From assembly GCA_965197475.1 (NCBI GenBank), contig CBDANF010000003.1, positions 1,920,001-1,984,000 on the forward strand: DNA of 64,000 nt, read 5' to 3'. Numbering within the stretch: position 1 is the first letter of the stretch; each line of letters opens with the position of its first letter. The notes beneath the pieces were generated by a model. It did not search any database, was not told the origin of the DNA, and saw nothing but the letters and a program-made list of their open reading frames with translations. This DNA comes from Candidatus Poribacteria bacterium (GTDB taxonomy: Bacteria > Poribacteria > WGA-4E > WGA-3G). The position numbers were made by a program, and so were the translations under genes. Positions 5,854 to 56,990 of this stretch are shown piece after piece.

Positions 5854-6423
5854 ATGACGCATTTGGAAACGCACGACCCTTTGCAGGATATATCCATTCC
5901 AGCACCTGGCACGATGACGTTAGAGGAATTCCTTGAGAACGATGTAGAAGGGTATGAATATGTGAAAGGAGAATTAATTCCTATGGCTGCAGCCTCAAGG
6001 AGACATGGTAGAATAAGTGTAAATATCCTACGGTATTTAGATCCGCAGGTCTATGAAAATAACCTGGGAGAATTGTATACATCAGAAACATCATTTAAGG
6101 TTGGAGAACGTGTGCTAAAACCGGATGTTGCGTTTGTTGCATCAGAACGGTTGGATGTAGACGAAGACAAAGGACTACCGATACCACCTGACCTTGCAAT
6201 TGAGGTGGTTTCTCCTTCAGATATTCATTCTCGTGTCATTGGAAAGGCACTTGTTTATCTGGATGCAGGCACACGCTGCGTTTGGATTGTTGACCCCGTA
6301 TCAAAAACCGTGACGGTGTATAAATCTGAGACAAACATCAAGACACTTACGCGTGAAGATACACTTACTGGGGATGATGTAGTCCCGGGTTTTTCCTGTC
6401 CGGTTGCACAACTGTTTGAGTAG
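5854..6423 (+). CDS. Uma2 family endonuclease
   Basis: YEYVKGELI, KPDVAFV, PPDLAIEVVSPSD, VWIVDP, VVPGFSC. Confidence 0.92.
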   Translation: MTHLETHDPLQDISIPAPGTMTLEEFLENDVEGYEYVKGELIPMAAASRRHGRISVNILRYLDPQVYENNLGELYTSETSFKVGERVLKPDVAFVASERLDVDEDKGLPIPPDLAIEVVSPSDIHSRVIGKALVYLDAGTRCVWIVDPVSKTVTVYKSETNIKTLTREDTLTGDDVVPGFSCPVAQLFE

Positions 6424-13114: not shown

Positions 13115-13590
13115 GATTATCTCCATTTTGTTGCATAAACTTTAGTTTGTGGTGCATTCCGTTTCATTTCTAACAACCGGTTATGAGATATATGAAAATA
13201 ATTATACACTCTCACCTCAAGGTAGGTACGGTTTCCTAACTGCACCTTATTTTGCATAGAAAGATTGAAGGGGGTAAAAAAATTAGAGGGGGTAGGTTCG
13301 CGCGAATCCGATACTTTTGATTTTACTATTAAAACATGAAATTATATTTTTGTCAAGGAAAATATAACCGGTTATCATGAAGTCTATTGAAACTTGCACG
13401 GGTTTCACTTTATATAACGTTATGATAACATACGTCCGAAATTAAGTCAACCGTAATTATTCTTGTAGGAGGGGTTTGTAACCCCGATGCGACTGTTTGT
13501 AGTCGCGCAATTCATTGCGCCTCATACACCCAGTAGTAAGGCTTTTCTCTTGTGGGAGGGGTTTTCAACCCCGATGCCCGACACCGATAC

Positions 13591-13619
13591 TTGACACAAT
13601 TCTGCTACCATGCTATCCT
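13591..13619 (+). promoter_or_regulatory. Sigma70-type promoter of the methyltransferase gene, copy 2
   Basis: TTGACA-17 bp-TATCCT, 30 bp upstream of ATG 13650. Confidence 0.7.
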
Positions 13620-13649
13620 TTACCAAAAAAACACCGCAGGAAAACACCA

Positions 13650-15269
13650 ATGACACAAAACTTTCCCGACAACGCACTATACGAAATGGACAATCTCGAA
13701 GTGCTACGCGGCATGAACAGCGACACCGTACACCTCATCGCCACCGACCCGCCCTTCAACATCAAACGCAACCGAAGCGGCACAGCCGGACATTATGTAG
13801 ACAACTGGAAATGGGGAGACACCGGCATATTACCAGATCAGTGGAAATGGAACGAAGTGCATCCCAAATGGCTTGAAGAAATCAAAGACAACCACACCGA
13901 ACTATACCACGCCATAGACGCAGCCAAACACTGTCAAGGCGAAGATACCGCCGCGTTCTTATGCTTTCTCAGTGTTAGATTGATAGAAATGCACCGTATC
14001 CTAAAAGAGACGGGTAGCATCTATTTGCATTGTGACCCTACCGCAAGCCACTACATCAAAATGTGCTTGGATGCGATCTTCGGTAGAAAAAACTTTAGAA
14101 ATGAAATCGTGTGGAAGCGTCAGACAGCAAATAATGCTGTTTCTAAGAAATATGGTCGTATTGTGGACTACCTGCTTTTCTATACGAAGGGCAACAAATA
14201 CACATGGAATCAGCAATACGGTGCCCGATCCGAAAACGCTCAAAAAGAGTTCCGACACAAAGATGCTGACGGTCGGGTGTACAGAACTCACGATCTCACG
14301 GCCCCAGGCAGAGATGCTAATCGAATGTTCGAATGGCGAGGAACAATTCCCTATCGAAACTGGGCATATTCAAGAGAAACGCTTGATAAGATGTTGTCCA
14401 AGGGTGAGATTCTCTTGCGAAAAGATGGAACGGTGTCAGCAGCACGAGGACACAAGATATATCTTGACGAGCAACCTGGGGTGAAGTTGCAGACGATTTG
14501 GGATGATGTGGCAAAAGTAGGCACATCTAAAGAACGCACCGGCTCACCAGACCAAAAACCGGTCGCCCTTTACAAACGGATAATCAAAGCGTCATCCAAC
14601 GAAGGCGACCTTGTCCTAGACCCGTTCTGCGGATGTGCAACAACGATCATCGCAGCAGATGATCTCAAACGTAGGTGGGTAGGTATAGACAGGCGCGTAG
14701 ATGCCCGCTACCACATCATAACGCGTCTGATGGGTATTAGCAAAAAAGAACGCGAACGAATAGAGGAATACGCTACAGATAAAAATTGGTTGGATAGACA
14801 AACAGCAAAATATGAAATTCACTACCAAACAGCGCCGCCCGTCCGTACCGATGACCCCGAGACAACGTCCCCTGAATTATCCCATGTCTATCAGCACCAT
14901 CTCGAACCGCTGCACAGCCATGCCGAGATGCACCAAATCCTTGTCGATCAGTTCGGATTGAAATGTTGGGGGTGTAACTTTGTCCCTCCCGACAAACGCT
15001 ATTTACACCTTGACCATATCGTCCCAAAAAGCGATGGCGGCACCAACGACATAGACAATCGCGCGCTCTTATGCCAACCGTGTAATAGCAAAAAATCTAA
15101 TACGATGAGTCTCACGTCGCTACGCAGACAAAACAAAAAGGAAGGATATATCCAACAGGGCGAAGCGATAGATCTCCCGGCTGCTTTAGCGTGGACGCGA
15201 TCCCTTTTAGTCCAAACACTCCGCGAAACACCCTATCAAGGACCACTACCGCTTGAAAGTGAAAGATAG
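13650..15269 (+). CDS. Beta-class amino DNA methyltransferase (N6A/N4C) fused to a C-terminal HNH endonuclease domain
   Basis: DPPF motif IV precedes LDPFCGCATT motif I; FRNEIVWKR; QKPVAL; C-terminal CWGC...HLDHIVPKSDGG...N..LLCQPCNSKK. Confidence 0.9.
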   Translation: MTQNFPDNALYEMDNLEVLRGMNSDTVHLIATDPPFNIKRNRSGTAGHYVDNWKWGDTGILPDQWKWNEVHPKWLEEIKDNHTELYHAIDAAKHCQGEDTAAFLCFLSVRLIEMHRILKETGSIYLHCDPTASHYIKMCLDAIFGRKNFRNEIVWKRQTANNAVSKKYGRIVDYLLFYTKGNKYTWNQQYGARSENAQKEFRHKDADGRVYRTHDLTAPGRDANRMFEWRGTIPYRNWAYSRETLDKMLSKGEILLRKDGTVSAARGHKIYLDEQPGVKLQTIWDDVAKVGTSKERTGSPDQKPVALYKRIIKASSNEGDLVLDPFCGCATTIIAADDLKRRWVGIDRRVDARYHIITRLMGISKKERERIEEYATDKNWLDRQTAKYEIHYQTAPPVRTDDPETTSPELSHVYQHHLEPLHSHAEMHQILVDQFGLKCWGCNFVPPDKRYLHLDHIVPKSDGGTNDIDNRALLCQPCNSKKSNTMSLTSLRRQNKKEGYIQQGEAIDLPAALAWTRSLLVQTLRETPYQGPLPLESER

Positions 15270-18646: not shown

Positions 18647-19576
18647 TTATCTCTGGAACCCTGATATTGTCGGGTTTCGCTGCGCTCTACCCGACCTACG
18701 AACTTTAGATTTTATTATAGACCAGTAACAACACACAATTAAAACGTTATAATGTCTAATGTGTCCCCACGTGACGCTCAGATGATTTGATGTAGGACTG
18801 ACATCAAGTCCTTGAGCATTCATGTTTTTCTGTACTTCTGCTCCTGTGAGCGCGCGTTCATAGATGCGGAATTCGTCGACATATCCCTGAATAGCATCGG
18901 CATTGACACCGTCAGAACGATCTCCAATAGCAAGTTTAAGTCCGCCTTTTGGGAGTTTACCTCCTGGAACCGCATACTTTTTCTCTTGTTTTCCGTTTAC
19001 ATAGTAGTGAACTGTCGCACCATCGTAGGTGCCGACAAGATGGATCCATTGCTCAAGCGGGATGTCCTCCAGCACATTATGTTGTGCTGCCTTTGTTTCT
19101 TGACCCCCAGCTCTTATGAAAAAACCGTGCTGGTTGTCGTCATCATCATAATACAGACTGGCAACTGCACTATTTGTTGGCTGGTCGTCAAGTGAGATAA
19201 TTCGATTCCAACTATCATCTAAAGCAGTGATATAGACCCAACACTCCAATGTGATTTCATTCCAATCACGGTCAATTTTCGGTGGATCTGAATCCTCAAC
19301 GAGTAAATTATCATCAACACCGTCAAATAGGATACACTCTCCAACTTTACAATCGGCAGCAAGGGCAAGTTCAGGGTCACCTTTGACAATAGCGGATAGT
19401 CCAGAGAATATATCCTCTGCCTGTTTTGCGATTTGCACTGTGTCTTTATCAAACGACCAGTAAGCAACTAAGCCATCTTCAACTGCGCCAACGATAGCAT
19501 CTGCAGGATGTGTTAATACTGTGAAAAACACGAAAAGTATCAAAATTGCGTAGCCTAATGTTGTTTTCTGGATCAT
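18647..19576 (-). CDS. Secreted LamG-like (concanavalin A) domain protein
   Basis: Signal peptide, LVAYWSFD, WIHLVGTYDG, GYVDEFRIYERAL, tail VSPTSNHLSVTWGHIR; the 3' end runs on into a REP. Confidence 0.88.
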   Translation of the reverse strand: MIQKTTLGYAILILFVFFTVLTHPADAIVGAVEDGLVAYWSFDKDTVQIAKQAEDIFSGLSAIVKGDPELALAADCKVGECILFDGVDDNLLVEDSDPPKIDRDWNEITLECWVYITALDDSWNRIISLDDQPTNSAVASLYYDDDDNQHGFFIRAGGQETKAAQHNVLEDIPLEQWIHLVGTYDGATVHYYVNGKQEKKYAVPGGKLPKGGLKLAIGDRSDGVNADAIQGYVDEFRIYERALTGAEVQKNMNAQGLDVSPTSNHLSVTWGHIRHYNVLIVCCYWSIIKSKVRRSGRAQRNPTISGFQR

Positions 19577-25953: not shown

Positions 25954-26755
25954 ATGAAGTATTTTATAACAATGGGTATTATGGTGCTTGTTGCTGTCTG
26001 TTTGCTGATCGTTCCAACCCATGCCGCTATAAATCCCGACAATATCATGGGAATGTGGCTCTTTAATGAGGAGAACGGCGACACGGCAAAAGATTCGTCA
26101 AACAACAAGAATGATGGTAAAATCAACGGTGGTGCCAAGTGGGTTGATGGTAAGTTTGGGAAGGCACTTGAATTTGATGGAACAGACGATTGGGTTGAAG
26201 TTCCGCATTCAGACAGTCTTGGGTTTTCAAAAGGGACTTCTTTTTCTATCACGCTCCACTATAAAGGCACAAAAATAGGTGGTTCTCTCGTAGGCAAAAA
26301 CTATGAAGACACAACGCAGGCAAAACCTTGGTATCTTCTTTGGAACGGAGGAGTGGGTAATACAATATCCATCTATCTGCGTACTAATAATGACCAGAAT
26401 TCAAGAATTGATGGAACGTTGAATGTATCAGATGATAATTGGCATTTTATTGCTGCAATAGCAGATACGGATACAGAGAAGATTTCATTGTAGATTGATG
26501 GAGAAAAGAATGTTGAGGGTAACATGAATACCACCGATGGTTACGGAACTAGTGAAGGTGTGTTTCATATTTGGACATCATTCTGACAGGTATACCGCTG
26601 GCATCATTGACGATGTCACACTCTTCAATATCGCCTTAAGTGAAGACGAGATGGAAACTATCATGAACAATGGTGTTGAAGAAGTTGCGGTTGTTGACGC
26701 TATTGGCAAACTTACAACGACATGGGCTACAATTAAACATCGTGTATCTCAATAG
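25954..26755 (+). pseudogene. LamG-like domain protein with an in-frame TAG and a +1 frameshift
   Basis: ISL*IDG (TAG 26491-26493 where Y is expected); frameshift near 26572 (FHI/GHHSDRY); tail KLTTTWATIK. Confidence 0.8.
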
Positions 26756-26858: not shown

Positions 26859-27953
26859 ATGAAACAGATATTGACACTCCTTGCATTGGCGTTTTTGCTA
26901 TTTGCTGGATTAAGTTGTCAGGAAACCACAGAAGACCCAGATCCAATAGTTGACACATTAACGGGCAGCCTCCAAGGGGAGGTGCAATCAATTGAAGGCG
27001 TATCAATTCAGGTGCGCTTGTTAAAAGACGGACAACTCGTCGCGCAAACCGAAGCAGATGGAAGTTATGAGTTTGTTGAGTTTGAAGAAGGTGATTACAC
27101 GATTCAAATATCAGCAAAAGGCTATGAAATGACAGAAATGAACGTGACTGTCGTGGCGGGGGAAACTGTTTCATTGGACAAAGTGACACTGGAGGCGTTG
27201 GCGGAACCAGTATCACACCTGCGCGGCATTTTAACAGATATGAAAACAGGAAATCCACTGTCCGATGTGCTTGTGCGACTTACCGATAAAGCGGGTGAAG
27301 CGAACGAAGCGTTAACGACTAAAGAAGGTGTTTTCACCTTTGAGAATCTTCCAGTAGATCAAGCATTTACCTTGACGATCATGCATGCAGGTTATGAAGA
27401 TCACGAAGTTGCCGTGCAACCGATTCCCGCTGGTGAGACCTTTGAACAAAATATAGAACTCACCACAGGACCTGAACCGGTGGAACTGGATCCTGGTGAA
27501 GGGCTAAGCACCGGCAGCCAGGCACCAGCTTTTGAGTTGCCTGACGGTAAAGATAAGAAACATGCACTTGCAGATTATATTGGTAGCAAAAAGGTAGTAA
27601 TCGTGTTTTACCGGGGCAGGTTCTGACCGTATTGCCGCGAGCAACTCGGTGAGTTGCAAAAAAAATACGATAAAATTCAAGCTGAAGGCGCAGAACTTAT
27701 CGCTATCAGTTCTGATAGCGTAAAAGAAACGAAAAAGACGACTGATGATGGAAATCTCAAGTATCTGGTACTAGCTGATAATGACATAGAAACGATTAAC
27801 GCTTACAATGTTGTTGATCCAGCGAACAAGAGAATAGCACGAGCATCAAGTTTTGTCATAGATCTGGATGGGAAAATCACGTGGGTATCACTTGACGAAT
27901 GGGATCAGCGCGTACCAACTGCCGAAATTATATCAGAATTAGGTAAGTTCTAA
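26859..27953 (+). CDS. Selenoprotein 1: lipoprotein, two carboxypeptidase-regulatory-like beta-sandwich domains plus a peroxiredoxin-like (AhpC/TSA) domain, UxxC (364 aa, U256)
   Basis: ORFs 26859..27626 and 27654..27953 are in one frame across TGA 27624-27626: VFYRGRF-U-PYC-REQLGELQ; lipobox GLSC (C20). Confidence 0.9.
27641..27657 (+). promoter_or_regulatory. Putative SECIS hairpin 1
   Basis: GCAACTC-GGT-GAGTTGC, 14 nt after TGA; possible lower stem cgtatt/aatacg (27628 / 27664). Confidence 0.82.
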
Positions 27954-28142
27954 TGAATTTTACGATACGGCAACAACAAACACCCGTGCCGACAACGGTA
28001 GAAATAGCGTGGTAAGCAAGTACGTTTACGATGCTAATTCCTGAGTCGGCTCGGACTATTGAAGAGAGTAATACGCTTAGGGGTTGAGGGACGCGTATAA
28101 CCTGAAACACTACAAAACAGATTTTAAATAGGAGTTTTAACT

Positions 28143-29258
28143 ATGGAACGCGTATTGACACCCCTTGGATTAGGACTTTTACTTTTGGTTGCATTGGGTT
28201 GTGGGACGGCGGATAATCCCGTCAGTAAGATTACAGAAATTGAGACTACAACAGGCGCACTACGAGGAAAGGTACAACCAATTGATGGCGTATCATTTCA
28301 GTTCCGCTTATTAAAAGACGGACAACTTGTGGCGCAAACAGAAGGAGATGACGACTTCGTACTAAGAAAGATTGAAGCAGGGGATTACACACTCCGTATC
28401 TCAGCTCAAGGCTACCAAAAAACGGAACTCAACGTGACTGTTATAGTGGGGGAAACTGTTTCATTAGATGAAGTGGTACTTGTGGAATTAGCAGAGCCTG
28501 TCTCGCAACTACATGGGCTTTTAAGGAACGCGAGAACAGGAATACGGCTTCGTAAGGTACTTATCACACTTAGCGATGAGGCGGGAAAAGAATATGAGAC
28601 GTTGACGACAAATGAAGGTGTTTTCACTTTTGAGAATTTGCCCACTTTACAGACATTTATCTTAACAGTCAAGTACGCCGATTACAAACAATACGAACTC
28701 ACGGTGGAACCCATACCTGCCAACGAGACGGTTAAATTGTATATCAAACTTACACCATTGGTGAAAGCAAGGGAATTGGAACCCCTGGAGCCCGGCGAAG
28801 GCTTAAGGATCCATAGCGATGCACCAGAATTTGAATTACCTGATGGCAACGGTGTGTTGCACACACTCGCGGACTATCTTGAAGATGGCAAAAAAGTGGT
28901 ACTTGTCTTTTATTGGGGCAGTGGGTGAGCTGCTTGTCTAACGCAACTCGGTGAGTTGCAAAAGAATTATGACAAAATTCAAGAGGCAGACGCTGAAGTA
29001 ATCGCTATTAGTGTTGATACTATAGCGGAAACAAAACAGACAGTTGAAAATGAAGGTCTTGAGTTCCCGGTACTCTCTGATCAGGAAATGGAAGCAATTT
29101 CCGCTTACAATGTAGTAAATCAAGAAAACCGCAACGTTGCACGACCAGCTACTTTTATTATTGAGTCAGATAGAACAATTGCATGGGTATCTCTTGATAC
29201 TGTGAATGAGCGGGTACCAATAGCAAAAATTCTTATGGAATTAGGTAAACTTTGGTGA
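28143..29258 (+). CDS. Selenoprotein 2: paralogous lipoprotein, beta-sandwich domains plus peroxiredoxin-like domain, UxxC (371 aa, U262)
   Basis: In-frame TGA 28926-28928: VFYWGSG-U-AAC-LTQLGELQ; lipobox ALGC (C20). Confidence 0.88.
28943..28959 (+). promoter_or_regulatory. Putative SECIS hairpin 2
   Basis: GCAACTC-GGT-GAGTTGC, 14 nt after TGA. Confidence 0.82.
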
Positions 29259-29268
29259 AATCTTTTAA

Positions 29269-29655
29269 AACGTGAGTTCGACAAATGCCGTAGGTTGGGT
29301 AGAACAACGTGAAACCCAAAAGGTTGAATTGTTGGGTTTCGCTGTGCTCTACCCATAGGTGTCAATTTAGTGTGCTATATGCAAAAAAGATGCTGATTTG
29401 TGATGAAAGCAGCCCCAGCGGGGCAGCATGCGCGCATGGCATGCTGCATGAGGTGTCTGACAACACGTACACATACACACCTTTCGCCCCGCTGGGGCTT
29501 GAGTTTGGTAGGGGTCGCGTGTCTGGACACCTTTCGCCCCGCTGGGGCTTAGATATCTGAAATATAGGTTTATTTCCTTAAATTGACACCTATGGGTTTC
29601 GCTGTGCTCTACCCAACGGACATCTACATTTGGAACTTATTATTGAACTCACGTT
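29269..29655. mobile_element. REP-carrying MITE (TIR aacgtgagttc) with a second element nested at 29356-29592
   Basis: Outer element is the reverse complement of 56851-56990; inner TIR taggtgtcaattta/taaattgacaccta flanked by a 23-bp direct repeat tgggtttcgctgtgctctaccca. Confidence 0.8.
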
Positions 29656-29693
29656 TTTAAAAACTAATACATACATAAAGGGGTTGTTAATAC

Positions 29694-30260
29694 ATGAAAC
29701 AGACGCAGATATTCTTTGCGTTGGCACTTTTTCTGTTGGGTGCTTTGAGTTGTGGAACAACAGATAATCTTATCAATCAACCGGAAAAGTTGGAGCCGGG
29801 TGAAGGATTGAATATTGGTAGTCAAGCACCAGATTTTGAGTTGCCAGATGGAAACGGTGCGTTACATGCTCTTGCGGATTATATTGGAAACGACAAAAAG
29901 GTGGTAATCGTCTTTTACCGAGGCGGTTGGTGAGGGTCGTGTCTAACGCAACTCGGCGAGTTGCAACAGAACTACGGAAAGATTCAAGCTGCAAACGCAA
30001 AACTTATTGCTATCAGTTCCGATGATGTAAACGCGACACAAACGACGGTTGAAAATAAAGGACTCATATATCCTGTGCTTGCAGATAGCAACAAAGACGT
30101 GATTAACGCCTACAACGTCCTTGATCAAAGCGACACAACTATAGCAAGACCTGCATCTTATATTATTTCGCCGGATGGAACGGTTGCCTGGAAATCGATT
30201 GATACTGCGGCTGTACGGGTGCCAACAGCTACAATCCTCACAGAATTAGGTAAACTCTAA
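29694..30260 (+). CDS. Selenoprotein 3: short lipoprotein with the peroxiredoxin-like domain only, UxxC (188 aa, U80)
   Basis: In-frame TGA 29931-29933: VFYRGGW-U-GSC-LTQLGELQ; lipobox ALSC (C20). Confidence 0.9.
29948..29964 (+). promoter_or_regulatory. Putative SECIS hairpin 3
   Basis: GCAACTC-GGC-GAGTTGC, 14 nt after TGA. Confidence 0.82.
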
Positions 30261-31375
30261 TGAAGTCTTACGATAAGGTAATAGAAAACATTATTGCAGA
30301 CAGTGAAGCGGCAGCACTTAAGCAAGGGACGCTCAACCGCCGCCAATTCCTAAGTCGTATTGGTACTATTGGCGGTGTTGCGCTTAGCGCAGTTCCTGCA
30401 TTCGCGCAAATTGGTGGTGGACGGGTGCTAACCCCTACGACACAAATCGCGGCACTTACACCGGTTGTTGAAGTGATCGGGAAACAAGTTTGGGAAAACG
30501 ATAGACTCAACGAAGATGCTGTTAGCGAGATGGTTGACCGAGCGATGATGAAACTCACTGGTCGAGATACTGCTAAAGAAGCGTGGCGAGACTTTGTACT
30601 GCCGGACCATATTGTCGGCATAAAAATTAACCCGCTTGCCGGTCCAAAGTTAAGCACACACTCCGTGGTCGTCAATAAAATTATTGAGGGTTTATTCAGT
30701 GCGGGCGTTCTCAGAAAACAGATAATTATTTGGGATCGATTTGAGGAACATCTGCTTAATGCCGGCTATCCGATTAAGACAGATGAAGGGGATGTGCGGA
30801 CGCTCGCGTCTGATATGGACGACATCGGCTACGATGATGAAGTGTTCTATGAAACTGAAAAAGATAGTGTTACCAGACGAGAGAATGAAAGCACCCGTTC
30901 TCGATATTCGCGAATTGTCACAGAACAGGTAGATGTGGTTATTAATGTGCCTATCTTGAAACAGCATGATATGGCGGGTGTGAGCGGGTGTTTAAAAAAC
31001 ATGGCTTTCGGCAGTGTGGATAACACGCGGCGATTCCACGGTAAACCGCTTTACTGCAATCCTGCTATTGCCGAAATTTTTGAGCATAAGGTACTGAAAA
31101 AGAAGATCGTTCTAAATATTGTTGATGGATTGGTAGCGTCATTTGATCAAGGACCGACATATCATGCTGAAAGCACGTGGCAATATGGTGGGTTGTTTGT
31201 GAGTGCTGACCCCGTCATTCTTGATACGCTTATCCTTCAAACTGTTAATCAAAAACGCGAAGAATTGGGATTAAGTTCTATGTCAAAATATGCTAACCAC
31301 ATCACCTCAGCAAGCGGTCTCGATTTGGGCAAAAACTCACTTGACCAGGTCAATCTTCAGAAAATTGAGGTATAG
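30260..31375 (+). CDS. DUF362 domain protein with a twin-arginine signal
   Basis: LNRRQFL plus hydrophobic stretch; VGIKIN, INVPILKQH..AGVSGCLKN, ADPVILD; start overlaps the upstream stop (TAATG). Confidence 0.85.
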   Translation: MKSYDKVIENIIADSEAAALKQGTLNRRQFLSRIGTIGGVALSAVPAFAQIGGGRVLTPTTQIAALTPVVEVIGKQVWENDRLNEDAVSEMVDRAMMKLTGRDTAKEAWRDFVLPDHIVGIKINPLAGPKLSTHSVVVNKIIEGLFSAGVLRKQIIIWDRFEEHLLNAGYPIKTDEGDVRTLASDMDDIGYDDEVFYETEKDSVTRRENESTRSRYSRIVTEQVDVVINVPILKQHDMAGVSGCLKNMAFGSVDNTRRFHGKPLYCNPAIAEIFEHKVLKKKIVLNIVDGLVASFDQGPTYHAESTWQYGGLFVSADPVILDTLILQTVNQKREELGLSSMSKYANHITSASGLDLGKNSLDQVNLQKIEV

Positions 31376-31379
31376 TTTC

Positions 31380-31622
31380 ATGAAACGTAAATACATCTCT
31401 ATGCTTATTCTGTTGAGCGTGCTTCTAATCACAGTTGTATTCTCAGGATGCACCGTGACATTTACTCCTAACGACGCGCTGCAGTTTAACCTCTCGGAAC
31501 CGACGGATAAAGCGGTATCCCTTGTTGCGGAATTTGAATCGGGTGAAGAGGATAACGTTGCTGGTGATGTCACACAGAAGACGGGCAGTGTGTGTGCTGG
31601 CGGGGCATGCATCATCTATTGA
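31380..31622 (+). CDS. Small lipoprotein (80 aa) with C-terminal CAGGAC motif
   Basis: Lipobox FSGC (C24), acidic linker, ends GSVCAGGACIIY; ATG 4 nt after the DUF362 stop. Confidence 0.72.
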   Translation: MKRKYISMLILLSVLLITVVFSGCTVTFTPNDALQFNLSEPTDKAVSLVAEFESGEEDNVAGDVTQKTGSVCAGGACIIY

Positions 31623-31866: not shown

Positions 31867-34197
31867 TCAATCTCCTTTTTGAGATGGTTGGCTTTCCTCA
31901 TTGGTATTCTCGTGTTTAAGGTTGCCTTTCTGATCAAACTTGAAGGTGCCCGATCCTACACCCTCAACACGAATCTTGAGAACGCCTCTTCTGTCAACCG
32001 TGACATTGACATCATTAACCCTCATTGTACCTCCACCTGAACCAGAAATTGTGGAACTACTTCCATTATGTGTTAGTCTGTATCCTAACCGAAGTTCCTT
32101 AACTTGATAACCGTTCTTATTCAACCAGTTTATTATTGCTTTTGCTTCCTCATTTTTTCCTGCGTATTTTATCGATTTTTGCGGAGTTAACAAACTTCTG
32201 TCAAGGTCTTTTCCTATGTTATCAATTCTTGCTTTAGCAACGATTTTGTCCCAATCCCATAATAGTACTGTACCATCCTCACCCCCGCTATCGAGTATTT
32301 TCCCGTCATGTGAAAACACAAGCGTTTCTACCGATTCTGTATGTCCGGATAGCATTCCCAAACTTTTACCTGTTTCTACATCCCATAACTTAATTGGAGT
32401 GCTCCACATATCCATTCCAGACCCAATAAGAATGGTACCATCAGGTGAAAATACCAATTCATTTTTAAATCCATCTAAATTACCTGGGATTAAGGTAGGT
32501 CCGTCTTCTGATTCTGTGTCTAATTTCCATAAGTGAATACCGTCCCTGCTTACCGTTGCAACCACAGAACTGTCGGGTGAAAATGCCAACGCACTTGTAC
32601 CCTTGATATTGGATGGTGTGATATCACGCTGTGTAGAAATATCCCAAACTTGTGGGTTGCGATGTTCACTTATCGCAGCGAGTCTTTTTCCATCAGGTGA
32701 GAACATCAACTTCCCCCTGAACATACGTTCTTTTGTGTTAAGTTGGAACAATTCAATTCCGGTATTCAGGTGCCACGCTCGAATTTCTTGGCGACTGCTT
32801 CCAGCAAGCATGTTGTCCGGTGAGAATCCAACTGCTGAAGACCAGTTGGCAACTTCCTGCAAAGGAGGGGAAAGTTTTTCGCCTGTCATTATATTGAATA
32901 ATTGAAGAGAGTTAGTACCTCCAGCTCTACTATGCATTCCGAATCCAACCGATTTAAACGCAATCATACCTTCGCTACCACAACACGCAAAAAACTTAGC
33001 ATTTGGTGATAACGCGACTGTCTCGGTGGCATCGCTATGTGCAGCAGAGAAGGTAGACAATTCCTGCCGAGTCTTGAGGCTCCATACATCTACAGTGCCA
33101 TTAAAGGCTGCACTCGCGAGGGTCCCACTTTCTGAAAATGCGACTGCTTTTACCCATTCTGTATGTCCAATGGTAAAAGTAGTAAATTCCTCTCCGTTCT
33201 CTGGATTCCAGAAACGGATTGTTCCATCTGCACTGCCACTGGCAAGACACATACCATAAAGAGGTGTTCCCAAAGGTGCAAAGGCTAAGGCATTGATGGT
33301 GTTTTTGTGTCCCATAAGAGTGGCACGTTCTTGTTTTGTGTCTAAATCCCAGAGTTTGATTACCTTACCAGCATCACCACTGGCAAAAGTATTTCCGTCC
33401 TCTGAGAATGCAACAGCGGTAACCCACGCTGCATGTCCTTTTAGCGTCCCAAGTTCGGCGTGGTTTTGGGTATCCCATAATTTCACAGTTTTGTCCTCAC
33501 TTCCGCTGGCAAATAGTTTTCTATCCGGTGAGAACGCTAACGCCAAAATAGCTGTGTCTCTGCCACGCGCATGCCCCTTGAGAGTTCCCAGATGGCTTTT
33601 CGTGGTTGTGTCCCATAGGTGAATTTCTCCGCCTCGGTCTGCCCGAGCAAGATTGTTGCCATCTTGAGAAAAAGCAATCTTATCGGATAAATTATCTATA
33701 TTGGACTCCGATAATTTTTCACCGGTGTCAGCATGCCAATAGGTCATTTCCTGACCTCTATTTATACTGATTAGTGTCCTGCCATAGAATACCAATGCAG
33801 ATAACACTGTGGGACCCCGAGTTAATGTAATCGTTGAGAGGTTGCTTTTAGTTTCTACGTCCCAAATTTGGATAATAGGGTTGTTAAATCCGCCGCTTGC
33901 GAGCATTTTTCCATCTGGCGAGAATGCAAGTGCGTTCACATGCCCTGTATGTCCAGTGAATAAAGCTGTCTCTTTTCCATTTGGTACGTCGTATAGCCAA
34001 ACTCCAACATCCGTACCAACAGCAAGGCGCGTGCCATCCGGTGAAAACTGCATAATATTGATCCCGCCTTTTCCGAGCCGTGCGATTGCACCTTCAGGTA
34101 AACCTACTTGTGTGTTATCTTGGGCAAAACTGGTTGAGAATATCGCTGCCGTAAATAGAATAGTTAGTAATAATGTGTGTCTATATTTCATTTTCAA
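31867..34197 (-). CDS. Secreted WD40-repeat protein
   Basis: Signal peptide, LPEGAIARLGKG, many GH...LAFSPDG..LASG..D.TV.LWD repeats. Confidence 0.95.
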   Translation of the reverse strand: MKMKYRHTLLLTILFTAAIFSTSFAQDNTQVGLPEGAIARLGKGGINIMQFSPDGTRLAVGTDVGVWLYDVPNGKETALFTGHTGHVNALAFSPDGKMLASGGFNNPIIQIWDVETKSNLSTITLTRGPTVLSALVFYGRTLISINRGQEMTYWHADTGEKLSESNIDNLSDKIAFSQDGNNLARADRGGEIHLWDTTTKSHLGTLKGHARGRDTAILALAFSPDRKLFASGSEDKTVKLWDTQNHAELGTLKGHAAWVTAVAFSEDGNTFASGDAGKVIKLWDLDTKQERATLMGHKNTINALAFAPLGTPLYGMCLASGSADGTIRFWNPENGEEFTTFTIGHTEWVKAVAFSESGTLASAAFNGTVDVWSLKTRQELSTFSAAHSDATETVALSPNAKFFACCGSEGMIAFKSVGFGMHSRAGGTNSLQLFNIMTGEKLSPPLQEVANWSSAVGFSPDNMLAGSSRQEIRAWHLNTGIELFQLNTKERMFRGKLMFSPDGKRLAAISEHRNPQVWDISTQRDITPSNIKGTSALAFSPDSSVVATVSRDGIHLWKLDTESEDGPTLIPGNLDGFKNELVFSPDGTILIGSGMDMWSTPIKLWDVETGKSLGMLSGHTESVETLVFSHDGKILDSGGEDGTVLLWDWDKIVAKARIDNIGKDLDRSLLTPQKSIKYAGKNEEAKAIINWLNKNGYQVKELRLGYRLTHNGSSSTISGSGGGTMRVNDVNVTVDRRGVLKIRVEGVGSGTFKFDQKGNLKHENTNEESQPSQKGD

Positions 34198-36328
34198 TTT
34201 CCTTTGTTTTCTTTTGCTTTGGAGATGATTTTTTCCCAGTCCCAGAGGAGAACGGTGCCATCTTGGCTACCACTCGCGAGTATCTTCCTATCGTGTGAAA
34301 ATACTAATGTTTCTATCGGTTGTGAATGTCCTAACAGGATTCCTAATTTACAACCTGAATCTACATCCCATAATTCAATTTCATCATCCCAAGCATCCGA
34401 TTTTGGATCAAGAAGGATTCTTCCATCGGGTGAGAAAAGTAACATGTTACCTCTCCAATCAAATTTTTTAGGACGAATTTCTGTACGTACCTGCATGCCT
34501 GTATGTGTCACACTGCACAAATCAATGCCTTTAATATGTTTGATAGCAAGCAGAGAACTATCAGGTGAAAATGCAATTCCCGTTACCCAATTGATGTCAG
34601 GCGGTGTAATTTTGTGTTGCGTGAAAACATCCCACACTTCTGGCTTAGAACCAGACCCAGACATAGCCAGGAACTTCCCATTAGGTGAAAACATCAATTT
34701 ACTTTCAAATGATGATAACGATTTAATGCGGAACATCTCAAGTCCAGAGTCAATGCTCCACAAACGTATACCTTGACGACGAGTACCGGCAGCAAGTATT
34801 TTTTTATCTGGTGAGAATGCAAGTGAATTCGGTTCCAGTGTAAGAGAGATAAGTTTGTCTCCTGTGGGTAGAAGCCATAGATGCGTTTCTTTATGTGGTT
34901 TTGAAGTCGCACGTGTGTTTCCACTAATTGAACGTACAATAGTATCAGCACCGTGGCTTGCAAAAAGCGTGGCATCCGCCGTGAAAGCAGATGCTTCAGT
35001 TTTATCGTGATGCGCGATCGATGGAATTGGTAGTTGTCGTCCAGTTTTTACATTCCACATTTGCACTGTACCATTAGATGCTGCACTGGCAAGCGTTGTA
35101 TTATCCGTAGTGAATGCCACCGCCTTAACTCCCGACGTATGTTCTGTGGTAAAAATAGATTGTTCTTGCCCAGTATGTGTGTTCCAGAAACGTATTGTAC
35201 CATCCCAACTCCCACTGGCGAGGATATCTTTGTCAACAGGTGAGAACGCTAAGGCTCTAATGCTGCTCTTATGTCCTGTAAGCATAGCCTTCTGTTCTCC
35301 TTTTTGAACATTCCACAAAAGTATTCGGTTAGCTGTTCCACCGCTTGCGAGTATTGTACTGTCGGGTGAAAAAGCCAATGCATCAACCTTTTCCGTATGT
35401 CCCTTAAGAACAGCACGTTCGGTGCTCGTAGTAGTATCCCATAATCGTACAGTATTGTCATCATGTCCTTGCAACAGTTTTCCTGTCCGGTGAAAATGCC
35501 ACTTGCAACAGTTTTCCTGTCCGGTGAAAATGTAAGTGCATTAACCCCTTTTTGAGGTATCCGCTTTTTCCACGACAGTAACGCGAATGGGGTTTTTGCT
35601 TTGAAAATAGCTAGTTGATACCCTGTGACTGCATCCCATAAGCGGATTTTGCCATTTTCTGGATCACCACTTATAAAGGTTTTATTATCATGGGTAAATG
35701 CTATTAGGTCGCGATAATGTTCGCCATAATAGCCATCTTCCAGTGGCTCATTATCAGCACTTCTACCCTTGTGCTTAGTTATAAGTTTACCGTCGGTAAC
35801 ATCCAAATGGTAAATACAGCTGAATTGGTTGGGAGTAATAAGGGTTTTACTATCCTTAGAAAATGTCATCGCTGGCACACCATCACTACTGCTATATAAA
35901 GGTATGTATAAAAGTTCATTACCAGTTTCGATTTCCCACAGACGTATAACTGAGTTTGATGATCCACCGCTTGCGAGTATGCGATTGTCAGGTGAAAACG
36001 CTAAGGAGTCCACTTGCGCGATTGTATGTACATTCCATTCTTCAAGTACTACCGATTCGATTTCATGATTGTTGACACGAGTTGGCTGCGCGGGGAACAA
36101 AGCCTTAGCGTTACGGGTATTCACATCGTATAACCACACCCCGATGCTCGTTCCAACTGCAAGATACTTGCCATCAGACGAAAACTGCATCACATTTATA
36201 CTGCCTTTTCCGAGGCGTGCAATTGCACCTTCTGGCAGACCGCCTTGTGTGTTATCTTGAGCGAAAATAGTTGAAATTGGAACAAGACTCAGAACTATAA
36301 TTGAGATATATGTATATATTCGGCTCAT
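34194..36328 (-). pseudogene. Secreted WD40-repeat protein frameshifted by a 31-bp duplication
   Basis: cttgcaacagttttcctgtccggtgaaaatg at 35468 and 35502; removing the extra copy restores TFSPDRKTVASGHDDNTVRLWD. Confidence 0.85.
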
Positions 36329-50044: not shown

Positions 50045-51030
50045 CGCTCATGTCAAGAGTAAGTGCTTTTGACGAGTTTTGCTATAAAATCAACACTGAC
50101 AGCTTTTAGATTCATGACGAACTCACAGATTGCGACGTAACCGGCGAGGAACTTTTTATGAACGCCACGAAAGGGACGAAGGAAGTTTCGCAGCGTCGTC
50201 CAGGCACCTTCAATCGTCCTTGTATGGATCTCGTAAAGACCATCACCGTCTGCGTCTCTTGCCCACTCGCCATCCTTATGGAGAACAATCTCACGGGCGC
50301 GCTGAATACGGTTATAGCCACGCCAACCATCCGTATACACCGTTGAAGTCGGCAACGTCCACTGATGAACGTGTGTTGAAAGCGTCGCAGAATCGGTGTG
50401 CCGCACAACACGTAATCTCAGGAGACCGCTTTCGCGACCTTTCGTCCCAACAATAGGCGGACGATCATTGTCATAAGTCCCATGTCCCCTGCGTTTATTG
50501 CCACGCCGACGCGGCGGATCCGAAGCATCAACGTGCTTATCGCCTTTTTCACCGGCGTTTTGAAACATCTCATCTGTTTCGACTTCAGCATCAGGTAAAG
50601 CAGCTTCGGGTTGTATCTGCTCTGCCGAAGTTTGGAGTTTACGTCTTATAGAAAGAACGGTTTGACGACTTAGACCCAGTTCACACCCGAGTTGTGCACT
50701 TGAAACACCTTGACAGACACCGCGCAAAAGCAGAACGACCTGTGAGGGACGAAACTGCGTGCCAGCAAAGACCGTCCCGGTATAGAGGTTGTAGATGCTC
50801 TCACAGTGTTTGCAGCGATACACTTGTAGACCACTTGTTTCAGTCGGACGGAACTTGCGTGCCTCCGCCACGCTCGCTTGGCATTTTGGGCAACACAGCC
50901 CTTGAAGGTGGAAATGATCCAACACCCACGCTTGAGTTTTTTCTTCATCCAGGAGAGATTGTATTGGAAAGTCCATAGGTAACACGCTAACATAACTTTG
51001 AAAAAATAGCACTTACTTTTTACATGAGCC
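50045..51030 (-). mobile_element. IS1595-family insertion sequence (transposase 50053..51012)
   Basis: Zn ribbon CPKC/CKHC, VETDE, VYTDGW, IEGAW; TIR gctcatgt.aa.agtaagtgct; 8-bp TSD aagttttt. Confidence 0.9.
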
Positions 51031-51038
51031 AAGTTTTT

Positions 51039-52129
51039 CAGGACTTACGCAATAATCTACAATTATGTTATACTGTTCTATTATGACTACATTTACACTT
51101 TCTAAAAAGAAGCACCACTTATTTTCTGATTATTGTCAATTTTTGTTAGCGAGTTTCACTAATTTTACACAAACCTATTTTGCAAACCATACGGAGAAGT
51201 GGAGCCATGATCAACTCAATCGTTTCCTGAGAAACGAAAACATTCCTTCAAGCGAACTCTGGGAATCTGTCAAAGACGACATTGCGTTTGATAAAGATGG
51301 ATACCTTATCTTTGACGATGTTGTGCTGTCAAAAATATATTCAAAACTGATTGAAGCTGCCTACCCTCAATGGAGTGGTAGCGACAAAAAGGTCATTGAA
51401 GGCATCGGTATTGTCACGTGTGTCTATGTTAACCCAAAGACACACGAGTATTGGATCATTGATTACCGCATTTTTGACAAAGACCCTGATGGTAAATCCA
51501 AAATTGATCATTTACTTGATATGTTGCACGATGCTTACTTCAAGAAACAACTCTCGTTTCGGACAGTGCTAATGGATGCTTGGTATGTATCCATGAAAGT
51601 AATGAAAGCGATTGCGGCACTTTCCAAGGTCTACTATGCGCCCCTGAAACGAAACAGGCTTGTAAATGATACGGATGGTGTTGAACCGCACCAGCAAGTC
51701 CAAGATTTATCTTGGTCTCCATCAGAAACGACACAAGGCAAACGCGTGCATATCAAAAGGTTTCCAAAAGGGTATCAAGTGAAGTTGTTCCGGATTGTGT
51801 CTGATACAGGACGCACGGAATATATTGTGACAAACGATTTATCTCAATCGGATGCGAAAGCGACAAAACAACAGTGTCGGGTTCGCTGGAAGATTGAGCA
51901 ACTTCATCGTGAAATCAAACAATTAACCGGTATTGACAAATGTCAATGCCGCAAACTGCGTGCCCAACGAAACCATATTGCGTGTTGTTTCCAGGTCTGG
52001 GTCTGCTTGAAGCGTGCTGCCCGGAAAATCACTCAAACGATTTACGAACTCAAACAAAGTTTATTGGATGATTACGGACGACATCAACTCTCTAATCCTT
52101 CAATAATCTTCAAAACTGCGTAAGTCCTG
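51039..52129 (+). mobile_element. IS701-family insertion sequence (transposase 51065..52123)
   Basis: IFDD, LMDAWY, RWKIEQLHREIKQ; TIR caggacttacgca; TSD gttttt. Confidence 0.9.
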
Positions 52130-53740: not shown

Positions 53741-53825
53741 TTTAATTTGGTTTTCGGCATGATATGTGGTATCATTTAAAGAGAAAATCATTTATCATTT
53801 CACGAGTCACTATAGGAGGTTTTTA

Positions 53826-54290
53826 ATGGCAGAAATAGGAAAAGCTGCTCCAGATTTCAATTTATCAGGATCTACAGATCAGGAAGATACAGATGTTGCG
53901 TTGGCTGATTTTGAAGGGAAAAAACTCGTAGTTTTGTTTTATCCACTCGATTTTTCACCTGTGTGTTCGGAGCAAGTTCCAGATTTTAATGAGAACTTAG
54001 ATGCTATCCGTGCAAAAGGTGCGGATGTCATCGCTATTAATCGCGACTCAACGTTTGCACACAAAGCATGGAGTGCGGCACTCGGTGGTATCGGTTTCCC
54101 GCTACTCTCAGATATGAATCTTGAAGTATCAAAACAATATGGAATGGCACTTGAAGAAGTCGGTATAACGACGCGCGGCGTTTTTATTATTGACGGAACA
54201 GGTAAAGTAGCCTTCAAACACGTTGAAGATGCACCACCAGACAATACACTGACAGCAGAACAGGTCTTAAGCGAACTTGACAAACTTTAA
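53826..54290 (+). CDS. Peroxiredoxin (AhpE/AhpC-TSA type, Cys form)
   Basis: APDFNL, FYPLDFSPVC, FPLLSD, RGVFIID. Confidence 0.9.
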   Translation: MAEIGKAAPDFNLSGSTDQEDTDVALADFEGKKLVVLFYPLDFSPVCSEQVPDFNENLDAIRAKGADVIAINRDSTFAHKAWSAALGGIGFPLLSDMNLEVSKQYGMALEEVGITTRGVFIIDGTGKVAFKHVEDAPPDNTLTAEQVLSELDKL

Positions 54291-56850: not shown

Positions 56851-56990
56851 AACGTGAGTTCGATAATAAGATCCAAATGTAGATGTAGGTTGGGTAGAGC
56901 GCAGCGAAACCCAACAACTCAACCGTTGGGTGTGAAATAGTTGGGTTTCACGTTGTTCTACCAACCTACGGTATTTGTCAAACTCACGTT
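56851..56990. mobile_element. REP-carrying MITE
   Basis: TIR aacgtgagtt/aactcacgtt enclosing an inverted GTAG-REP pair. Confidence 0.75.

Follow-up and report, generated by a model that had tools for sequence, protein, structure and literature searches.

Why should selenoprotein genes stand directly before a gene for a putatively exported DUF362 protein? The question arises at positions 26859–31622 of a 64,000-nucleotide (nt) stretch from Candidatus Poribacteria bacterium (assembly GCA_965197475.1, contig CBDANF010000003.1, positions 1,920,001–1,984,000 of the forward strand), the whole of which was analyzed and is called the window below. Here, three genes that each carry an in-frame TGA, apparently read as selenocysteine (Sec, U), precede a gene of the DUF362 family (PF04015) with a putative twin-arginine translocation (Tat) signal, which is itself followed by a gene for a small lipoprotein with a C-terminal Cys pair. 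DUF362 is a large family that has, to our knowledge, no known function. Judged from gene order and junctions, the three Sec genes, the DUF362 gene, and the small lipoprotein gene are one conserved, tightly coupled unit within Poribacteria, and a thiol/selenol relay among their products is plausible. With TGA read as U, the three genes are single open reading frames (ORFs); under translation table 11, a TGA interrupts each of them once.

To compare this locus with others, we took the best 80 of 214 confirmed relatives of the DUF362 protein together with their surroundings. All 80 are from metagenome-assembled genomes (MAGs) of Poribacteria, and their DUF362 proteins share 69–87% identity with that of the window and down to 62% with one another; counts over 81 include the window. 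A TGA-containing, peroxiredoxin (Prx)-like gene lies directly 5′ of DUF362 in 80/80 loci, and the small lipoprotein gene lies directly 3′ in 79/80, the exception (L074) being a contig that ends 88 nt past DUF362. The linkage of these genes, proposed when the window was first read by a model without database searches (the sequence-only reading), thus recurs in the relatives. In the window, the TAA stop of selenoprotein 3 (30258–30260) shares one base with the ATG of DUF362 (30260–30262) in a TAATG overlap, and a 4-nt spacer separates the DUF362 stop (31373–31375) from the ATG of the small gene (31380), exactly where that reading had placed them, as are the three genes with in-frame TGA. Its impression of translational coupling also extends to the other loci, since the one-base overlap between the stop of the Sec gene and the start of DUF362 is found in 71 of 81 loci, with overlap or abutment (−8, −4, or 0 nt) in six and gaps of 7–387 nt in four, and the DUF362 stop is followed by the small gene after 1–5 nt in 76 of 80. 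The overlap and the short spacers survive both the duplication of the Sec gene and the loss of its N-terminal domains. That 80 related loci share the in-frame TGA, the stop/start overlap, the short spacer, and the paired Cys residues at the C-terminus indicates a pattern beyond chance.

The number of Sec genes is variable, with one copy in 48 of the 80 loci, two in 27, and three in five, as also in the window. The core of the module is therefore one Sec gene with a copy number of 1–3; the trio of Sec lipoproteins that the sequence-only reading had taken as the module is real in the window but does not define the core. That reading also stopped short at the upstream end: the five genes that it joined are linked, but it omitted a gene for a secreted LamG protein, which is broken in the window by a TAG (26491–26493) replacing a Trp codon and by a frameshifting single-base insertion near 26571. 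Intact relatives encode 261–289 amino acids (aa) with a Laminin_G_3 domain (E 1e-15 to 5e-15). In 77/81 loci (72 of 77 assessable loci by tblastn), a member of the corresponding ORF cluster immediately precedes the Sec genes in the same orientation, often as two genes in tandem; where there is a single Sec gene, approximately 10–15 nt separate the two. By its conserved position, the putatively secreted LamG gene belongs to the module, at its upstream end. Shortened LamG copies were also found in two other loci (L006 and L029), and a conserved C-terminal motif, K-L-T/A-T-T-W-G/A-x-I-K, lies a few residues from the end of the LamG protein in L001, L003, L005, L011, L018, L021, L039, and L057. 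In some loci (L034, L036, L068, and others), a 12-residue unit (..SVQLANRKLAIQ..) is repeated in frame and in tandem before the signal peptide of the Sec gene, which probably reflects a noncoding repeat within the spacer that separates the LamG and Sec genes.

As a control for shared descent, all flanking ORFs were clustered. The first gene outside the module fell into 35 clusters among 75 loci on the upstream side, the commonest occurring in 14, and into 12 clusters among 76 loci on the downstream side, where the commonest was a convergent WD40-repeat gene (47 loci). In 30 flank representatives, the Pfam families (among them sulfatase, Dabb, metallo-beta-lactamase, PcfJ-like, 2-oxoacid dehydrogenase E2, Gfo/Idh/MocA, DNA methylase, and PIN) have unrelated functions. 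Because the core is retained while the flanks differ, and all loci belong to one phylum, the conservation points to selection within Poribacteria and not to independent recurrence. Pattern scans for promoters and terminators gave counts near the shuffled expectation. The features of the window are listed in Table 1.

Table 1. Positions of the module genes and associated elements, counted from the first nucleotide of the window
Feature	Position	Strand	Remarks
LamG/Laminin_G_3 pseudogene, first gene of the conserved module	25954..26755	+	lesions read against intact relatives
Selenoprotein 1, long form	26859..27953	+	364 aa; ..GLSC signal (putative); AhpC-TSA 8e-32, CarboxypepD_reg 3e-23
Selenoprotein 1, Sec codon	27624-27626	+	FYRGRF-U-PYC
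SECIS-like hairpin, gene 1	27641..27657	+	GCAACUC-GGU-GAGUUGC, predicted fold; begins 14 nt past UGA
Selenoprotein 2, long form	28143..29258	+	371 aa; ..ALGC signal (putative); AhpC-TSA 1e-31
Selenoprotein 2, Sec codon	28926-28928	+	WGSG-U-AAC; true stop is TGA 29256-29258
SECIS-like hairpin, gene 2	28943..28959	+	predicted fold; frozen codons
Nested inverted-repeat (MITE/REP-like) insertion	29263..29661	.	in the spacer between selenoproteins 2 and 3
Selenoprotein 3, short form	29694..30260	+	188 aa; ..ALSC signal (putative); AhpC-TSA 9e-33, no other domain
Selenoprotein 3, Sec codon	29931-29933	+	RGGW-U-GSC
SECIS-like hairpin, gene 3	29948..29964	+	predicted fold, loop GGC; frozen codons
Tat-signal DUF362 protein	30260..31375	+	371 aa; PF04015 3e-20, 73.5 bits vs cut-off 24
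Small lipoprotein	31380..31622	+	80 aa; ..FSGC signal (putative); mature part 57 aa; acidic middle

The assignment of the in-frame TGA to Sec was assessed in 120 copies of the Sec gene located beside DUF362, including those of the window. The active-site codon was TGA in 120/120 copies and a Cys codon in none, and all encode UxxC. The Pfam domain is conserved in frame on either side of the TGA, and distant Cys homologues have WCPYC at the same position, so that U corresponds to the first Cys of CxxC. Approximately 14 nt past each TGA, the transcript is predicted to form a hairpin (GCAACUC-GGY-GAGUUGC) with a 6–7-bp stem and a 3-nt loop containing G, which resembles a selenocysteine insertion sequence (SECIS). 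Among the 105 distinct sequences compared, the codons within this hairpin were CTC for Leu, GAG for Glu, and TTG for Leu in 105/105 cases, against usages of 25%, 42%, and 14%, respectively, in the neighboring DUF362 genes, and CAA for Gln in 100/105 (47% in DUF362 genes), the remaining five forming G–U pairs. Synonymous sites frozen in this way are the hallmark of an RNA element under constraint. No Rfam family reached its gathering score for these hairpins. TGA is also the terminal stop of selenoprotein 2 and of 48 of the 81 DUF362-proximal Sec genes, where it overlaps the DUF362 ATG as TGATG, and so it cannot be a sense codon in general. The window yielded neither tRNA-Sec nor sel genes, and a tRNA scan of 58 loci likewise gave no tRNA-Sec. 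Others have predicted Sec-containing proteins from MAGs of Poribacteria (PMC13582414). Public gene calls (P0391–P0455) break the selenoproteins at the TGA into two parts, one N-terminal and one C-terminal, and four records (P0393, P0395, P0396, and P0398) have W at the Sec position, as though TGA encoded Trp.

All three selenoproteins of the window have a C-terminal AhpC/TSA domain with a U-x-x-C center, which in selenoproteins 1 and 2 is preceded by two immunoglobulin (Ig)-like CarboxypepD_reg domains (Pfam). Statements on clades of the Sec copies are drawn from a single FastTree phylogeny of 113 redoxin domains, rooted at the midpoint. The distal long copies, including selenoprotein 1, formed a clade of 30 tips (support 0.88), nested together with the single-copy long genes in a group of 75 tips (0.90), whereas the short and medium copies proximal to DUF362 lay across the midpoint root from them. 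The "middle" paralogue, represented by selenoprotein 2, was confined to the five three-copy loci and the window and formed a clade of six tips (0.96). From this tree, the ancestral state was likely one long Sec gene overlapping DUF362, and selenoprotein 3 of the window is likely a derived paralogue that has lost its Ig-like stalk.

Among solved structures, the best relative of the Sec domain was the BCP peroxiredoxin 2cx3 (E 9e-15). When selenoprotein 3 was aligned to 2cx3, the Cys at the second position of UxxC fell on the peroxidatic Cys, and U fell on the Thr/Ser of the peroxiredoxin motif. The proteins thus depart from the PxxxT/SxxC motif typical of peroxiredoxins (BCP/PrxQ), in that U replaces Thr/Ser, and this placement indicates a thioredoxin-like active site in which Sec is the exposed nucleophile. 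No peroxiredoxin or other NCBIfam model reached its cut-off for the Sec proteins, ResA and BCP being the best partial matches. By this motif and the AhpC/TSA domain, the selenoproteins are of the thiol:disulfide-oxidoreductase type, which agrees with the redox role proposed in the sequence-only reading, and belong to the "Prx-like thiol:disulfide oxidoreductase" family. In the accessible text of a selenoproteome review, selenoproteins of this family (PF00578, UxxC/UxxU) are "predicted with high confidence" (PMC13188914), and they are also counted in the tables of an earlier survey (PMC1794560). Our proteins share with this family the AhpC/TSA fold, the in-frame TGA giving UxxC, the CxxC of the Cys homologues, and a predicted hairpin past the UGA. 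They differ from it in being putatively lipid-anchored, in usually bearing two N-terminal CarboxypepD_reg domains, in having Sec in 120/120 copies, and in that the gene is overlap-joined in an operon with a Tat-signal DUF362 and a two-Cys lipoprotein. As far as domains and motifs can tell, they add new, putatively lipid-anchored members to a predicted family that was already known.

The selenoproteins can also be compared with TlpA, ResA, and CcmG, which are membrane-tethered, periplasm-facing reductases of thioredoxin fold with a dedicated client. ResA was the best NCBIfam match of selenoproteins 2 and 3 (57–60 bits), and several ResA structures were matched. However, these scores are far under the 170-bit cut-off, the nucleophile is Sec and not Cys, and no CcdA/DsbD partner, cytochrome, or copper client is encoded nearby (window and scanned flanks). 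Operons with more than one selenoprotein gene are known, including grdA-grdB, prdB-prdC, frhA-frhD-hdrA, SAO, and Tso, as described in the selenoproteome review (PMC13188914). The present module resembles those described there in that several selenoprotein genes lie together, presumably serving one pathway. In contrast to them, the Sec genes of Poribacteria are paralogues of one family, and their constant partners, namely DUF362, the small lipoprotein, and LamG, are not selenoproteins. Elsewhere in the window, at 53766–54290 and unlinked to the module, an ordinary Cys-type AhpC/TSA peroxiredoxin is encoded (AhpC-TSA E 2e-36). It has TCA (Ser) where the module genes have Sec, and this was the sole non-TGA site found.

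Export motifs were called by pattern matching for signal peptides and lipoboxes, with a PROSITE-like lipobox pattern, and the signals are therefore putative. At the level of motifs, all five products carry an export signal, as the sequence-only reading had noted: four lipobox-like sites (LSC, LGC, LSC, and SGC), each preceded by a hydrophobic N-terminus and each fitting the PROSITE-like pattern, and one Tat motif (NRRQFLS). The lipobox was found in 71/120 Sec genes with the strict pattern and in 113/120 with the relaxed pattern. Its Cys was preceded by G in 62 cases, by N in 37, by S in 13, and by A in one, Asn being unusual at this position. The mature Sec proteins contained no Cys other than that of UxxC in 108 of 113 cases.

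In the DUF362 protein of the window, the putative Tat signal consists of NRRQFLS, the h-region IGTIGGVALSAVP, and AFA-Q. The clade to which this protein belongs comprises 1915 representatives at E ≤ 0.001, its next relatives being 55% and then 30–42% identical, and it was sampled with 116 members for the conservation of motifs and residues. An RRxFL-like motif was present in 105/116, R27 and R28 each being present in at least 90%. The polar residues conserved in this sample are K122, N124, D159, R160, N229, K234, H236, K246, N247, N255, H260, K282, D289, D317, D322, and R333, and C266 is also conserved. The window protein has exactly two Cys residues, C244 and C266, both of which are invariant in the 81/81 Poribacteria copies. 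The sequence-only reading had connected DUF362 with iron–sulfur (Fe–S) genes; a role of this kind was rejected for the window protein, which has only two Cys residues and no Fer4/ferredoxin domain (Pfam) and the model of which matches LarA-type structures.

That model, made with AlphaFold2, had a predicted local distance difference test score (pLDDT) of 91.3 and a predicted template modeling score (pTM) of 0.83. Of the 13 PDB matches listed by Foldseek at E ≤ 4e-4, 12 were LarA, LarA-like, or malate racemase structures, and one was an unnamed T. maritima protein. The matches to LarA chains had a probability of 1.00 and E-values of 2.6e-6 to 4e-4, but TM-scores of only 0.34–0.40 and identities of 11–17%. 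The window DUF362 is thus predicted to have a LarA-like fold, with TM-scores no higher than these, and such matches fit the placement of DUF362 and LarA in the same Pfam clan, as given in the accessible part of PMC11770544. Sequence searches gave no comparable signal: there was no Pfam match besides DUF362, including LarA_N (DUF2088), even at E ≤ 10; single-sequence and profile searches of the PDB found no relative and no LarA sequence; no NCBIfam family was assigned; and a search of the ESM Atlas with PF04015 excluded gave no lead (best 0.88, an unnamed cluster). None of the lar-type Pfam families was found in the window. LarA enzymes are cytoplasmic, unlike the present DUF362 clade, which carries a Tat signal and is putatively exported. 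When 16 DUF362 relatives, including the longest, were scanned for further domains, only DUF362 repeats, a type IX secretion system (T9SS) tail, FlgD_ig, or DUF6599 were found, and no redoxin. Residues 1–26 of the DUF362 protein (30260–30340) contain a 25-residue stretch (MKxxDKVIxxIxxDS..) before the twin-arginine motif that is conserved in Poribacteria and predicted to be helical, with repeat insertions in some relatives. It might be where a Tat proofreading chaperone docks, but this is speculation.

The small lipoprotein ends in GSVCAGGACIIY. The CAGGAC motif that the sequence-only reading had singled out in this ending (CAGGACIIY) is present in the window and in 59 of the 79 complete copies, but the invariant feature is C-x4-C-[IL]-[IV]-Y, found in 79/79. 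The G-C of the lipobox, EFE, GD-T, and G-S are also invariant. The protein has 262 relatives, all named ones of which are from Poribacteria; no Pfam or NCBIfam family was assigned to it, and the ESM Atlas gave no lead (best 0.76). The C-I-I-Y end was considered as a CaaX-type prenylation box and set aside because the protein carries a lipoprotein export signal. By analogy only, it recalls DsrC/TusE, in that it is a small protein with a Cys pair at its extreme C-terminus, encoded beside a putative client enzyme. The Cys residues of DsrC are spaced as C-x10-C. The present protein differs from DsrC in its C-x4-C spacing and in being a putative lipoprotein outside the cytoplasm, and the analogy does not imply a relation in sequence or fold.

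Taken together, the module contains three redox-capable pairs and few other Cys residues: U–C in the selenoprotein, C-x4-C in the small lipoprotein, and C244/C266 in DUF362. Our tentative reading, to which we give somewhat less than an even chance, is that DUF362 is an enzyme, that the small lipoprotein is a partner whose dithiol arm cycles, and that this arm and/or the Cys pair of the enzyme is reset by the selenoprotein. The envelope operon would then encode, in order, a secreted LamG protein, one to three lipid-anchored selenoproteins, a Tat-exported DUF362 of LarA fold, and the small lipoprotein. Catalysis on an extracytoplasmic substrate would fall to DUF362, and the small lipoprotein would be its dedicated partner or co-substrate, the C-terminal dithiol/disulfide arm of which would cycle during turnover, by analogy with DsrC and its C-terminal Cys arm. 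Through translational coupling, the selenoprotein would be produced in a fixed ratio, and it would reset C-x4-C and/or C244/C266 through a selenenylsulfide intermediate. Other DUF362 proteins are often joined to Fe–S-binding domains, according to the accessible part of PMC5742341, which hints that the family may need an electron partner, and a thiol/selenol chain outside the cytoplasm may stand in for the ferredoxin domains that are fused to other DUF362 proteins inside it. In its most specific form, in which DUF362 is an extracytoplasmic redox enzyme supplied with electrons or repair by a dedicated selenium chain that runs from the UxxC protein through the C-x4-C lipoprotein to the enzyme and replaces the ferredoxin domains of cytoplasmic DUF362 proteins, the proposal is unlikely, though worth stating. 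The LamG protein and the Ig-like stalks of the long Sec proteins suggest, more weakly, a glycan or surface target.

Several points weigh against this relay. We infer every redox step in it, as well as the substrate, the contacts among the proteins, and the direction in which electrons would pass. LarA enzymes catalyze a redox-neutral racemization, for which an external reductant is not needed. C244 is present in just 37 of the 116 sampled members of the wider DUF362 clade, so that a mechanism based on the Cys pair cannot be general to the family. The window and the scanned flanks yielded no CcdA/DsbD-type electron source and neither sel nor lar genes. The AlphaFold2 model of the small lipoprotein alone, in which the two Cys residues flank the turn of a terminal hairpin, is of low confidence (pLDDT 62). 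As for the Sec codon, the hairpin stem is invariant across the 105 sequences and offers no compensatory covariation, and its 3-nt loop is shorter than that of the classic Escherichia coli fdhF element. Finally, since the 80 loci belong to one phylum, their conservation partly reflects shared descent.

Of the alternatives to this relay, the most probable is that the selenoproteins are guardians, namely envelope peroxidases or repair reductases that, in an oxic periplasm, shield a thiol of DUF362 or a cofactor prone to oxidation (such as a sulfur-containing one of the LarA type), with the small lipoprotein as a structural subunit of DUF362 and not a redox carrier. It would account for the BCP peroxiredoxin as the nearest solved relative, for the Cys of UxxC lying on the peroxidatic Cys, and for an Arg that adjoins the position of the catalytic peroxiredoxin Arg in the 2cx3 alignment, and the LarA-like predicted fold agrees with it. 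Tat export suits a protein that is folded, and possibly loaded with its cofactor, before export, and is thus compatible with such a DUF362, while the fixed stoichiometry implied by the gene overlap fits a dedicated protector. However, the replacement of Thr/Ser by U makes the active site thioredoxin-like, with U as the exposed nucleophile, no NCBIfam peroxiredoxin model was reached at its cut-off, and we know of no DUF362 protein for which a cofactor has been shown. The protector role also leaves the invariant C-x4-C tail unexplained, and we consider it rather unlikely.

A metal-centered version, in which the small lipoprotein would be a metal chaperone or buffer for a center in DUF362, acting through its Cys pair and acidic patch while the selenoproteins keep the thiols reduced, draws on the invariant C-x4-C, EFE, and GD motifs. 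It also draws on the conservation in the DUF362 clade of His236, His260, Cys266, Asp289, Asp317, and Asp322, all of metal-binding residue types, and on the nickel enzymes among the LarA relatives named in the PDB match descriptions. We regard it as quite unlikely, because Tat substrates usually receive their cofactors before export, the small lipoprotein matches no known metal-binding family, and a C-x4-C over a tight hairpin turn, as in the low-confidence model, fits a disulfide at least equally well. Simple co-location, that is, genes inherited together in one phylum and co-transcribed for economy with unrelated targets, seems a little less probable again. The restriction of all 80 loci to Poribacteria would allow it, as would the partial retention of the wider neighborhood in sub-clades (WD40 downstream in 47/76 loci and the same upstream clusters in up to 14/75). 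Against it stand a core present in 80/80 loci despite changing flanks, an overlap and 1–5-nt spacers kept through Sec-gene duplication and domain loss, and a small lipoprotein whose named relatives are all from Poribacteria and whose gene comes immediately after DUF362 in each of the 79 loci that contain it. That the TGA is not Sec at all, the genes being split or truncated or the codon encoding another residue, is highly improbable: public calls do split at the TGA or print W, and neither tRNA-Sec nor sel genes were found in the window, nor tRNA-Sec in the 58 loci, but the TGA stands exactly at the first Cys of the homologues' CxxC in 120/120 copies, between conserved in-frame domain halves and before a frozen hairpin, it ends 48/81 proximal genes and gene 2, and Sec proteins are predicted from Poribacteria MAGs in the part of PMC13582414 that was accessible.

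No description of an operon that combines a Tat-signal DUF362, a two-Cys lipoprotein, LamG, and Sec genes turned up in the literature that could be searched; the study of selenoprotein neighborhoods by Haft and Tolstoy (2025, mSystems) lies outside this literature and may describe related ones. NCBIfam, the model collection from which NCBI names proteins of bacteria, has no entry for the DUF362 or the small lipoprotein partner. Likewise, nothing on the function of DUF362/PF04015 was found in the searchable literature, and the terms DUF362, Poribacteria, lipoprotein, and periplasm are absent from the accessible text of the 2026 selenoproteome review (PMC13188914). The constant, coupled trio provides concrete partners for a DUF362 clade of 1915 representatives, most of the 116 sampled members of which have a Tat signal. 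Sec and Cys interchange in many selenoprotein families; the occurrence of Sec in 120/120 copies, with Cys in none, is unusual in this respect and argues that selenium chemistry is needed in the oxic envelope. Because Poribacteria are uncultured, an envelope module with lectin-like LamG domains and Ig-like domains may be informative about their dealings with the environment. Should the relay be real, envelope redox biology would gain a selenium-dependent branch in addition to the Dsb and TlpA systems. If DUF362 is indeed a redox enzyme fed by selenium, the module would constitute a new three-component thiol/selenol pathway and give the first functional handle on the family, which has more than 1900 relatives in this one clade.

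The remaining observations concern repeats and neighboring genes. The spacer between genes 2 and 3 is swollen to 435 nt by the inverted-repeat insertion, which could interrupt their co-transcription. The insertion contains two exact copies of a 23-nt unit, which recurs with 1–3 mismatches in intergenic positions at 18671–18693 and 56891–56913, whereas no recurrence is expected in shuffled sequence, and it looks like a dispersed element of the repetitive extragenic palindromic (REP) or miniature inverted-repeat transposable element (MITE) type. On the minus strand, WD40-repeat genes at 31867–36328 converge on the module, the first with a signal-peptide-like N-terminus; the family is very large and multi-copy in these genomes, so that its downstream position in 47/76 loci may be due to chance. 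Elsewhere in the window, genes of mobile or defense type at 5854–6423, 13515–15269, and 50053–52123 encode a Uma2-family endonuclease, a fusion of an N6/N4 DNA methylase with HNH, and two DDE transposases (IS1595-like and DDE_Tnp_1).

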